Part shown: in pieces, positions 382-3,282 of the stretch | Numbering within the stretch: position 1 is the stretch's first letter | How the letters are laid out: every line of letters begins with the position of its first letter | Assembly: GCA_038231615.1 (NCBI GenBank) | Contig: JBBRLA010000011.1 | Span: forward strand, 1 to 31,013 | Direction of reading: 5' to 3' | DNA: 31,013 bases | Origin: Polyangia bacterium | GTDB taxonomy: Bacteria > Myxococcota_A > Polyangia > Palsa-1104 > JAEUJZ01 | Translations under genes and position numbers: made by a program | The notes under the pieces: model-generated | What the model was told of the DNA's origin: nothing | The model's input: the letters and a program-made list of their open reading frames with translations, nothing else | Database searches by the model: none

Positions 382-3282
382 ATGATGAACGAACGGGGCA
401 GCCGCAAAATTCCAGTCACCGAACGCCAGTTCCTTTGGGTCCAGGACGACGACAAGGGCGAAGTCACCCTCCACGTCGGCCCCACCATGGTCTCCCCCAC
501 CGCCGCCGACCGCATCGTCATCGACGACGGCGCCGGCTCCTTCTGCGAGGACGTCTCCGGCCGCCCCCAGATGATGATCGAAGTCGGCGACCACCAGTAC
601 GCCGTCCTCTATAACCCCCTCCTCGAAAGCGACGGCGGCCCCAACGGCCGCTTCCGCCAGGGCCGCAACGAGACCAAGCCCCTCAAAAACGGCACCCGAT
701 CCATGATTCCCGGCCCGTGCAGTTTCTGGCTCCGCCCCGGCCAGCGCTGCGAGGTCCGCGACGCCCACGAACTTTCCGGCAGCCAGTACATCGTGGTCAA
801 GGTCTACGGCCCCGTCGACAACTCCGCCCCCTTCTACGACGTCACCGTCAAGTCCGCCGCCATCACCCGCGCCACCGCCGAGAAGCTGGAAGGCGGCCCC
901 GTCCCCCGCGAGGGCGAAGGCGTCCCCCCGCCTCTCGAACGCGGCCAGCTTATCGTCATCCGCGGCATCGACACCCAGTTCTACATCCCCCCGACCGGCG
1001 TCGACATCGTCCCCGACACCTCCATCGACGAATCCGGCAACACTCTTTCCGCCGCCGCCGCCCGGCAGATGATCGCCCAGATCCAGAACCAGGCGTCTCA
1101 GGTCACCGGCCGCGCCAAGCCCCCGGCCCCGTCCCGCCAGGCCCCCAAGTCCGAACTCAGCCGCGAAATCGCCGCCGAGGAGGCCGCCCCCAGCCTTGAC
1201 GATGACTTCGACCAGCCAGCGATTCAAGACGAAGAACGCGGCAAGTCCGCCAAGCGCGCCAACGTCCAGTACGCCCAAGCCCCCAGCGTCGACCAGGCCG
1301 CCCGCACCCGCATGCGCGCCGCCCCCTCGCCGGCCCCCTCCGCCGTCCGCTCCGCGGCTGCTCCCGCCGGCGCCGCACCTCAAAAGCCCCAAAGCCCGCC
1401 AGCCTCCCCCGGCCAGTCCCTGAGCATCGACGACATCCTCTCCAGCGACAACTTCCGCAAGGCCGTCGAGCGCGAGGCCCGGCAGATGCGCCTCATCCGC
1501 CTGGCCGTGGTTTTGGGCGAGAAAGAATACTGCGTCCTCGTCGATCCCGACGGCAAGCGCGAGATCAAGGTGGGCCCCGCCCGGGTCTTCCCCGGCCCTT
1601 ACGACACCTTCATGATCAAGGGGTCCAAGAACCGCGTCTACGACGCCTACGAGCTACTGCCCCAGCGCGCCCTCTGGCTGCGCGTCATCTCCGCCATCTC
1701 CCGCGCCGAAATGGCCGACAAGATGCCCCGCGGCGTCCAGCTCGAACGGGAGATGTACTACCCAGGCGACGAACTCTTGCTCACCGGCGTATCGGGCTTC
1801 TTCTTCCCCTTCAACGAGATCGAAGTCCTGTCCCCCCGCACCGGCGAGGCCGTGGTCGGCAACGATCACAGCGACGTGTTCATCGAGGCCATCGGCATCG
1901 ACCAGAAGAGCGGCATCTACGTCCGCGACCTGACCACGGGCGAGGTGCGCCTGATCCGCGGCAAGCAGAGCTATCTGGTCGACCCGCGCAAGGAGATCCA
2001 CATCACCCGGAGCATCTCCGCCGGGGACTGGAACCTGTGGATCGCCCCCGCCGAGCCCCACAAACAGACCGACGCCGCCATCACCACCCCCTGGGCGGTC
2101 TCCGTGGTCGTGCCCCACAACACCGCCGCCCTGGCCACCTCCGCCGCGGCGCAAAGGATCATCGAGGGGCCCTGCGTCACCCTGCTGGAATATGAAGAGA
2201 CCCTGGTGCCCCTGAAGCTCTCCACCGGCACGCCCAAGGACGACGACGAGATCCTCGAGACGTGCTTTCTGCGCACCGTGGGCAACCGGGTCTCGGACAT
2301 GATCGACATCGAGACCAGCGATTTCGTTCGCATCCGCGTGCGCACCAGCTACACAGTGACCTTCCGCAGGGAGGAGCGCGACCGCTGGTTCAACTGCGAG
2401 AACTACATCCAGGTGATGTGCGATCACCTGCGCTCGATCGTGCGCAGCCGGACGCGCACCGTGCCCCTTTCGTCCCTGTGGCCGGAGATCGCCACGGTGG
2501 TGCGCGACACCATCCTGGGGCCAAGGGGCGAGGGCGGCGAGGGCCGGCGCAAGGGGCGCGCCTTCGACGAGAACGGCATGGCCGTCACCGAGGTCGAGGT
2601 GCTGGAGGCGAGCATCGAGGACGCCGCCATCGCGCAGATGATGCAGGCGGTGCAGCGCGAATCGGTGACACTGACCATCGGCGACCGCCAGGCCCAGGAG
2701 ATGCTGGCCTCGGCCAAGCTGCGCTCGGACCTGGAGCGGCAGACGCTGGAGCTGCAGGCGGCGGCGCGGGAGCGGGAGGCGCGTATGAGAGAGATGCTGC
2801 GCAAGGTGGACCACGAGAGCCGCCTGGGCGAGCTGCGAGAGAAGGAGACAGTGACGCGGGAGCAGCTGGAGCTGCAAAACCAGCGGGAGCTTTTGGCCGC
2901 TAAGAGCCGGATCGAGCGGGAGGGGCTGGTGCAGGCATCGCAACTGGAGGCGCTGGAGAAGGACGCCAAGGTGCGGGCCGGGGCACAGCGGGCGCTGCAT
3001 CAGGAGGAGATCGAGCACCTGACGACGATGCGGCAACTGGAGGTGGCGCTCATCGAGGCACAGGCCCGCGCCGCGGTGGCCGAGCGCACGGCCATCCAGC
3101 CCAAGCTGGTGGAGGCGCTGACCGCCCTGGGCGACAAGGCGCTCCTGTCGGAGGTGGCGCAGAACATGAACCTGGTGTCGCTCTTTCGGGGCAAGGACGC
3201 CGGGGCGATCCTCGCCGAGATCTTCGGCGGGACCCGCTTCCTGCCGGCGCTGAACGAGGCGCTGGGGCGAACCCCCCAATAG
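382..3282 (+). CDS. Major vault protein (MVP) homologue, the vault shell protein. It has MVP repeats, a ~115-aa Pro/Ala-rich insert, a shoulder (SPFH-like) domain, a cap-helix coiled coil and a cap-ring tail.
   Basis: By-eye alignment to mammalian MVP. N-term: IPVTERQFLWVQDDDKGEVTLHVGPTMV vs [28 protein letters not shown]. Repeat: SGIYVRDLTTGEVRLIRGKQSYLVD vs [25 protein letters not shown]. Shoulder: VVPHNTAALATS...GPCVTLLEYEE vs RVPHNAAVQVYDY...GPELVSLGPEE, and ETCFLRTVGNRVSDMIDIETSDFVRIRVRTSYTVTF vs [37 protein letters not shown], and VTEVEVLEASIEDAAIAQMMQAVQRESVTLTI vs [33 protein letters not shown]. These are followed by ~150 aa of heptad-like E/R/Q/L-rich coiled coil and a C-terminal tail. 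The start is moved to ATG 382 (MMNERGS...), which follows GGGAGGG at 370-376. The track ORF begins at 337. Confidence 0.8.
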   Translation: MMNERGSRKIPVTERQFLWVQDDDKGEVTLHVGPTMVSPTAADRIVIDDGAGSFCEDVSGRPQMMIEVGDHQYAVLYNPLLESDGGPNGRFRQGRNETKPLKNGTRSMIPGPCSFWLRPGQRCEVRDAHELSGSQYIVVKVYGPVDNSAPFYDVTVKSAAITRATAEKLEGGPVPREGEGVPPPLERGQLIVIRGIDTQFYIPPTGVDIVPDTSIDESGNTLSAAAARQMIAQIQNQASQVTGRAKPPAPSRQAPKSELSREIAAEEAAPSLDDDFDQPAIQDEERGKSAKRANVQYAQAPSVDQAARTRMRAAPSPAPSAVRSAAAPAGAAPQKPQSPPASPGQSLSIDDILSSDNFRKAVEREARQMRLIRLAVVLGEKEYCVLVDPDGKREIKVGPARVFPGPYDTFMIKGSKNRVYDAYELLPQRALWLRVISAISRAEMADKMPRGVQLEREMYYPGDELLLTGVSGFFFPFNEIEVLSPRTGEAVVGNDHSDVFIEAIGIDQKSGIYVRDLTTGEVRLIRGKQSYLVDPRKEIHITRSISAGDWNLWIAPAEPHKQTDAAITTPWAVSVVVPHNTAALATSAAAQRIIEGPCVTLLEYEETLVPLKLSTGTPKDDDEILETCFLRTVGNRVSDMIDIETSDFVRIRVRTSYTVTFRREERDRWFNCENYIQVMCDHLRSIVRSRTRTVPLSSLWPEIATVVRDTILGPRGEGGEGRRKGRAFDENGMAVTEVEVLEASIEDAAIAQMMQAVQRESVTLTIGDRQAQEMLASAKLRSDLERQTLELQAAAREREARMREMLRKVDHESRLGELREKETVTREQLELQNQRELLAAKSRIEREGLVQASQLEALEKDAKVRAGAQRALHQEEIEHLTTMRQLEVALIEAQARAAVAERTAIQPKLVEALTALGDKALLSEVAQNMNLVSLFRGKDAGAILAEIFGGTRFLPALNEALGRTPQ

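Follow-up and report, generated by a model that had tools for sequence, protein, structure and literature searches.

Is the Pro/Ala-rich tract that interrupts the repeats of a bacterial MVP-like protein a simple spacer, or is it a working part of a vault-like particle? The question is raised by a gene at positions 382-3282 of a 31,013-nucleotide (nt) stretch of a Polyangia (Myxococcota) genome (contig JBBRLA010000011.1, GCA_038231615.1), which is called the window throughout. The function of vaults has been obscure for decades. An initial annotation of the window had described the tract as a disordered, low-complexity linker between MVP repeats. We found that the product of 382-3282 is a full-length MVP homologue and that the tract belongs to a larger inserted module, which consists of two conserved helices around a disordered core of about 100 amino acids (aa) and lies between the third and the fourth of seven predicted wall repeats. 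What can be said about this structure is much firmer than what can be said about its function. The features of the gene, with residues counted from the ATG at nt 382, are the following.

382..3282, + strand: MVP-like gene, complete, 966 aa plus stop, taken from the open reading frame (ORF) list; the identical database protein P0001 begins MMNERG
409..1020, + strand: N-terminal block of three beta-rich repeats, aa 10-213 (predicted local distance difference test, pLDDT, above 90 in AlphaFold2, AF2; strand pattern, hhalign, Foldseek)
1021..1494, + strand: whole inserted module, aa 214-371 (158 aa), absent from contiguous-repeat relatives
1051..1107, + strand: conserved helix 1, aa 224-242 (AAARQMIAQIQNQASQVTG; family consensus SAAAARQLLAQL), an AF2 helix with pLDDT 55-67
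1084..1431, + strand: the span given in the initial annotation, 116 codons by in-frame translation
1108..1416, + strand: intrinsically disordered core, aa 243-345 (AF2 pLDDT, charge-hydropathy, composition)
1168..1236, + strand: acidic patch, aa 263-285 (IAAEEAAPSLDDDFDQPAIQDEE), seen as charge upstream of the motif in homologues
1237..1317, + strand: basic segment, aa 286-312, ending in the conserved motif
1288..1317, + strand: motif VDQAARTRMR, aa 303-312 (family pattern [VI][DN]Q[STA]AR.R.R[KV])
1318..1419, + strand: hypervariable Pro/Ala-rich tail, aa 313-346 (length spread; Polyangium comparison)
1426..1494, + strand: conserved helix 2, aa 349-371 (IDDILSSDNFRKAVEREARQMRL), modelled by AF2 as helices 349-354 and 356-371, the pLDDT increasing from 55 to 94
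1495..2283, + strand: C-terminal repeat block with R6-, R7-, R8- and R9-like repeats, aa 372-634 (hhalign, Pfam Vault_3/Vault_4, AF2 pLDDT above 90)
2284..2619, + strand: shoulder (SPFH-like) domain (PF11978 at 1e-20)
2623..3279, + strand: cap-helix and C-terminal cap region (AF2 secondary structure; alignment to the rat cap-helix)

Three features place the protein in the MVP family: a shoulder domain, MVP-type beta repeats at the N terminus and a long cap-helix after the shoulder. The shoulder matched MVP_shoulder (PF11978) in Pfam at E = 1e-20, with 74 bits against a cut-off of 25 and over profile positions 3-117 of 118, while Vault_3 scored above the Pfam cut-off and Vault_4 just under it (22.0 versus 22.9 bits). 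The rat MVP sequence used as reference matches PDB 4HL8 chain A across its full 861 residues, and the alignment shows no mismatch. In phmmer, aa 391-917 of the ORF aligned to rat MVP 274-793 (E = 4e-23). In hhalign, a profile of diverse relatives was collinear with the whole of rat MVP (probability 100%, E = 2e-43, 796 columns) and a narrow family profile aligned aa 378-630 to rat 276-517 (probability 98.7%); the mapping of the N-terminal block to rat MVP was weak with the narrow profile and clear only with the diverse one. The AF2 model, built from 84 diverse sequences (mean pLDDT 79.8), matched the human, rat and rabbit vault chains in Foldseek with E values of about 1e-35 and the murine R1-R7 crystal structures with about 1e-13. 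It supersedes an earlier run on a shallow alignment (40 sequences, 57-75% identity), which had a mean pLDDT of 54 and left the N-terminal block unresolved. The assignment to MVP made in the initial annotation was thus borne out by all four methods. An in-frame ATG upstream, at 337, would lengthen the product by 15 aa (ORF 337-3282).

The picture of nine repeats plus a linker did not survive. The strand pattern of the AF2 model delimits three repeats in the N-terminal block (R1-like, aa 10-60; R2-like, aa 66-118; R3-like, aa 122-212) and four in the C-terminal block (aa 376-421, 423-485, 500-560 and 567-615), so that the predicted wall has seven repeats and not nine. A rat-type series of nine contiguous repeats was not found, as the alignment gives no counterpart for rat R4-R5 and the 158-aa module interrupts the repeats. 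In the global hhalign alignment, aa 2-213 corresponded to rat 1-163 (R1-R3) and aa 370 onward to rat 270 onward (R6 onward), with the insert opposite rat 164-270 (R4-R5) but without real similarity to it. The C-terminal end of the N-terminal block is highly conserved (mean conservation 0.95). The R3-like repeat holds an internal helix and a variable loop; this second, smaller loop is Pro/Gly-rich (LEGGPVPREGEGVPPP, 886-936, aa 169-185), with a conservation of 0.25 and a dip in pLDDT to about 70. Downstream of the repeats, the shoulder also matched flotillin, prohibitin, HflK/C and stomatin in Foldseek, and the cap-helix was modelled as a single helix of about 158 residues (aa 748-905), aligned to rat 647-802.

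As judged from the model, the repeat fold stops at about aa 213 (..YIPPTGVDIVPDTS, nt 1020) and restarts at about aa 372 (IRLAVVLGEKEYC, nt 1495). The limits drawn earlier at 1084 and 1432 had to be moved outwards: AAARQMIAQIQNQ, taken there as the end of a repeat, and DDILSSDNFRKAVEREARQMR, taken as the start of the next, both belong to helices of the module. The stretch from 1084 to 1431, read in the frame of the 337/382-3282 ORF, encodes QNQASQVTGRAKPPAPSRQAP...QSPPASPGQSLSID, 116 aa without a stop. It contains 22% A, 14% P, 12% S and 10% Q, while W, C and H are absent. A and P together make up 36% of these residues versus 14.5% of the rest of the protein (binomial P = 5e-9), and A, P, S and Q together 59% versus 24% (binomial P = 4.5e-15). 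Over aa 243-345 the sequence has low entropy and few hydrophobic residues, and the AF2 model on the diverse alignment gave pLDDT values of 30-36, compared with more than 90 in both flanking blocks. Charge-hydropathy analysis agreed, with the core on the disordered side (<H> 0.396 versus a boundary of 0.42) and both flanks on the folded side. The disordered tract recognised in the initial annotation is therefore real. The window insert had no match to any Pfam family at E <= 1, PF04012 (PspA/IM30) included.

Disorder and low complexity do not describe the whole module, which also contains two conserved helices and a conserved motif. Its parts follow each other as linker, helix 1, Pro/Ala spacer, acidic patch, basic lead-in with the motif, Pro/Ala tail and helix 2. 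The linker is short and conserved (S-x-D-x-S-G). In helix 1 the mean frequency of the top residue was 0.61, versus 0.17 in the adjoining Pro/Ala spacer. Helix 2, which continues into the opening strand of the repeat that follows, had a mean conservation of 0.65 and the consensus D-[IV]-L-S-S-x-x-[FL]-R-[KR]-A-[LV]-E-[RK]-E-A-R-Q, with R359, A361, E363, R370 and L371 invariant. Between the two helices, the motif stands out with a mean conservation of 0.70 versus 0.17-0.35 in the surrounding region: Q305, R308 and R310 were invariant and A307 nearly so in an alignment of 40 sequences (A1), and the strict pattern was present in 100 of the 120 listed homologues, with close variants in the remaining 20. 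In the 100 homologues with the strict pattern, the region upstream of the motif carried a mean net charge of -6.2, and D or E dominated positions -20 to -15. The description of the insert as Pro/Ala-rich applies to the two ends of the core and not to its centre, where the acidic patch is followed by the basic motif. The insert shows two features of a disordered linker with a short motif: predicted disorder together with low complexity, and a conserved island within fast-evolving flanks.

All 120 listed homologues, which lie on contigs other than that of the window, shared this architecture, with a variable segment of 67-146 aa between flanks that were 92-95% conserved. This spread supports the earlier view of the tract as a hotspot of length variation, restricted, however, to the spacers. 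In these, the top-residue frequency was 0.17-0.30 and the gap frequency 0.4-0.6, and the tail after the motif ranged from 19 to 61 aa. The restriction follows from a comparison of five Polyangium species (105-111 aa), in which helix, acidic patch and motif were near-identical and most differences and indels fell in the Pro/Ala tail. The only repeats that Tandem Repeats Finder reported in the insert have units of 9 and 12 bp and are weak, one of them a 12-bp repeat at 1317-1345; slippage is not claimed as the source of the length variation.

An exhaustive search returned 991 representatives at E <= 1e-3, and 129 full-length ones, none of them close to rat MVP, were mapped with hidden Markov models of both flanking blocks. 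The two blocks directly follow each other (gap <=15 aa) in 96 of these proteins, with the broad-family junction consensus ..YIPPTGxEVVPDxxGxxVRxAVTLExLEYC.., and the corresponding junction of rat MVP is uninterrupted too. The proposal that the insert is lineage-specific was thereby supported, as was, for rat MVP, the statement that eukaryotic MVP lacks such a linker. The other 33 carry more than 15 aa at the same junction, and since the contents vary, we regard the junction as an insertion hotspot. One group of the 33 has the Polyangia-type disordered module, some versions being much longer (248-424 aa), and one group has a helical insert of about 100 aa that is not Pro/Ala-rich. The latter subfamily (P0131-P0148, P0158, P0159 and P0212; e.g. 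locus L074, 3001-5910) shows 34-41% identity and the pattern ..G.L.IENL...L.KAG...Y......Y.., without a significant Pfam match. In a further protein, P0122 (L076, 3001-6390; 1129 aa), the junction holds 324 aa of PspA/IM30 type (ESCRT-III-like; PF04012, 4e-13, above the curated cut-off), a match that is also recorded for the called gene. As a search with this insert found no further MVP protein that carries it, its one match being a PspA-family protein of 219 aa (E = 7e-4), the architecture is treated as a singleton. P0175 and P0176, which are among the representatives most similar to rat MVP, have three to four tandem copies of the first C-block repeat, each of about 46 aa, directly after the N-terminal block; the seam has therefore also been expanded by repeat duplication. 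Eukaryotes have two additional repeats of R3 type, R4 and R5, at this seam. Profile-profile comparison found aa 62-210 to be paralogous to aa 372-483 (probability 92%, E = 6e-7), which places the module exactly at the seam of two ancient two-repeat units.

On which face of the wall would such a module emerge? In the structure of the human vault with PARP4, the luminal MINT domain touches MVP Q164, R169 and D214, and docking is electrostatic, on an acidic stretch of R3-R4 (PMC12280208). Q164 lies 13 residues past the Y-x-P motif that closes R3, and D214 lies 10 residues past the one that closes R4. The equivalents after Y201-I-P in the window protein are S214 and P211, that is, the exit point of the insert. 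Since this point is homologous to MVP residues that contact MINT, it probably faces the lumen, going by the homology between repeats. We tentatively lean towards the module being a flexible luminal tether, a role that is still open to serious doubt. The short linker and the amphipathic helix would lead out of the wall and the second helix back to the next repeat. Given MVP-like assembly, a single flexible loop would extend from each subunit, probably lumenward, and the loops would stand at the wall height where human vaults dock PARP4 electrostatically. The Pro/Ala stretches would act as entropic spacers, free to drift in length, and the working part would consist of the acidic and basic elements that are conserved. 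The Arg-rich motif might capture polyanionic or protein cargo or, alternatively, pairing of acidic and basic elements might latch neighbouring loops together.

Several observations weigh against a luminal tether. In the AF2 monomer the motif has no structure and makes no contact, and the insert must be dispensable for the fold, because most relatives have none. Our literature searches turned up no experiments on bacterial MVP homologues or vaults, and thus none showing cage formation. As for cargo, the MVP-like gene has no conserved neighbour at 73 loci that could encode it, and Rfam and tRNA searches of the 31-kb window found no noncoding RNA. Finally, the PspA/IM30-like domain at the same site in P0122 is a membrane-active domain, which fits an exterior position at least equally well.

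Four other explanations were weighed against the tether. Neutral expansion of a loop tolerated at a permissive junction, with the Pro/Ala tract as a functionless, drifting entropic spacer, would account for the great variation of the spacers in residue, gap and length, for the 96 of 129 relatives that lack an insert and for the unrelated inserts at the same site in others. We consider it unlikely, though well worth keeping in mind, given three invariant positions in 40 sequences, a motif or variant of it in 120/120 homologues that share 56-75% overall identity, the conserved acidic patch and the two conserved helices; besides, every listed Polyangia member has kept the module. The loop might instead point outward and contact a membrane, the envelope or other particles, as in membrane-associated SPFH cages. 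The PF04012 domain of P0122 at the same junction and the Foldseek matches to flotillin, HflK/C, stomatin and prohibitin cages speak for such exterior display or anchoring, but the homologous human R3/R4 positions touch a luminal domain, the insert has no amphipathic-lipid or transmembrane feature and the PspA-type insert is a singleton, so that an exterior role appears improbable to us.

A nine-repeat ancestor might also have lost the fold of two repeats and left a disordered scar, and the insert does lie opposite rat R4-R5 with a comparable length (158 aa versus 107 aa). Yet no trace of the repeat signature GDEWL..G...Y.P..VEVV was left, the aligned stretch carries no confidence, and both composition and pLDDT are typical of a disordered region. 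In most relatives, moreover, seven repeats follow one another without a break, and the inserts found in others are unrelated, which makes a decayed remnant very improbable. An assembly or frameshift artefact fusing two genes, which the initial annotation had named as a way in which its reading could fail, is effectively refuted. High-GC DNA gives long ORFs in several frames, and still no support for a fusion was found: the other two frames of the insert contain stops and only the gene frame is open, and third-position GC (0.84-0.93) and a strong bias for C at third positions (C3, 0.64-0.76) are even over the N-terminal block, the insert and the next repeats. The architecture common to the 120 listed homologues was also seen at 17 of 20 inspected genome loci, isolate genomes included, the anchor patterns having failed in the other three. 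The related loci belong to Polyangia, among them isolates of Polyangium spp. and Minicystis rosea as well as metagenome-assembled genomes (MAGs) labelled Byssovorax and Enhygromyxa.

Eukaryotic MVP (rat, human and rabbit; PDB 4V60, 4HL8 and 9BW5) has the same order of beta repeats, SPFH-like shoulder, cap-helix of about 155 residues and cap region. The window protein differs from it in having a predicted seven repeats rather than nine and a helix/disordered/helix module in place of R4-R5; sequence identity is only about 16-22%. With the human R3-R5 docking site for PARP4 MINT (PMC12280208), the insert has in common the wall region, the presence of charged elements and an insertion point homologous to the contact residues; in humans, however, a folded surface binds a protein that is separate from the shell, whereas the insert is a disordered loop within the shell protein itself. 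The contiguous bacterial MVP-like proteins, which are the majority of the family, share the seven-repeat core, the shoulder and the cap-helix at 28-40% identity and lack an insert at the R3|R6 junction. Flexible linkers rich in Ala and Pro occur between the lipoyl domains of 2-oxoacid dehydrogenase E2 and as spacers in TonB and TolA, and cargo of encapsulins and microcompartments carries a linker plus a targeting peptide, an element that is located on the cargo or between enzyme domains. The insert resembles these systems in composition and in combining a variable spacer with a short conserved interaction element; unlike in them, the element sits inside the shell protein, as an internal loop.

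MVP homologues of Myxococcales and Cytophagales have been noted by Daly 2013 (PMC3762200) and Sokolskyi 2019 (10.1101/872010), and bacterial homologues were reported in silico in these two sources and in a preprint on viral MVP (10.1101/2023.11.10.566534). Text searches of PMC3762200 and 10.1101/2023.11.10.566534, together with the first of the three parts of 10.1101/872010, yielded no description of the insert, the seven-repeat core or the insertion seam. The present analysis adds a simpler bacterial wall, of seven repeats by the model, with a single preferred insertion site in the same wall region (R3-R5) as animal PARP4 docking, and one large clade in which a flexible loop at this seam bears a charged motif that is conserved. 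The boldest reading, which we think improbable, is that Polyangia make a shortened seven-repeat vault-like cage in which each subunit brings its own luminal tether instead of the R4-R5/PARP4 platform, and that the R3|R6 seam is a general plug-in site. On this reading, and provided that the 39-fold symmetry is retained, the lumen would be lined by some 78 loops, each bearing an acidic patch and an Arg-rich motif, which would package either a polyanion (RNA, DNA or polyphosphate) or one particular client protein. Lineages would then have installed different luminal or surface modules at the seam (a disordered tether, a helical domain or a PspA-like domain), and eukaryotes would have duplicated repeats. 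Apart from this reading, the analysis indicates a natural permissive loop into which foreign peptides or domains might be grafted in engineered vault nanoparticles. If the loop is a neutral spacer, the module is no more than a curiosity of protein evolution.

The gene neighbourhood was examined at loci L001-L073 by clustering of flanking ORFs, and no neighbour of the MVP-like gene was conserved beyond the genus Polyangium. In the window, the gene is followed from 3426-4004 onward by an ECF sigma factor, a GMC oxidoreductase and FabF, with a 148-aa ORF that lacks a Pfam match lying after the sigma factor; these genes do not recur beside the homologues, and tblastn with the five genes just downstream gave no match near homologues. 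Ten neighbouring window genes, regulators included, showed no obvious functional link, and three of them had no Pfam match. An association with vPARP/PARP4, TEP1 or vault RNA was not found in the neighbourhood (73 loci; Rfam and tRNA searches of the 31-kb window), and PADLOC, PHROGs and NCBIfam gave no matches. The MVP-like gene is preceded at 132-167 by a tandem repeat with a 9-bp unit (CGGAGGATG x4); on the minus strand it would encode (HPP)3 close to the N-terminus of a divergent ORF (MPIRLLYHSPHPPHPPHPP...), which extends beyond the start of the window.

Two further observations concern the gene itself. Within 382-3279 codon usage switches: the 5' two-thirds consist almost exclusively of C-ending codons (C3 0.61-0.76; GTC 25 versus GTG 1; GGC 28 versus GGG 0), and the last ~900 nt use G-ending ones (G at third positions up to 0.69; GTG 19 versus GTC 2; GAG 39 versus GAA 1). 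Both extremes lie beyond every other tabulated window gene, and the switch is absent in most homologues. As it falls near nt 2300-2400, away from the insert, it gives no support for a chimera there. The window copy of the gene is intact and has no interruption at the K-S-G-I codons (aa 509-512), at which the MVP-like gene is broken in at least three Polyangia MAGs (L072 with L066, L071 with L065, and L063). In the first pair (L072, at ~7539, and L066, at 4744-6001, both on JBGAUT010000014.1, the one contig with both halves) the halves are ~13 kb apart and have a short duplicated core in common. A gene for a tyrosine recombinase of the phage-integrase family (PF00589, 2e-23) adjoins the 3' half of the interrupted gene, and the interruption resembles the work of a site-specific integrative or intervening element with the MVP-like gene as its target.

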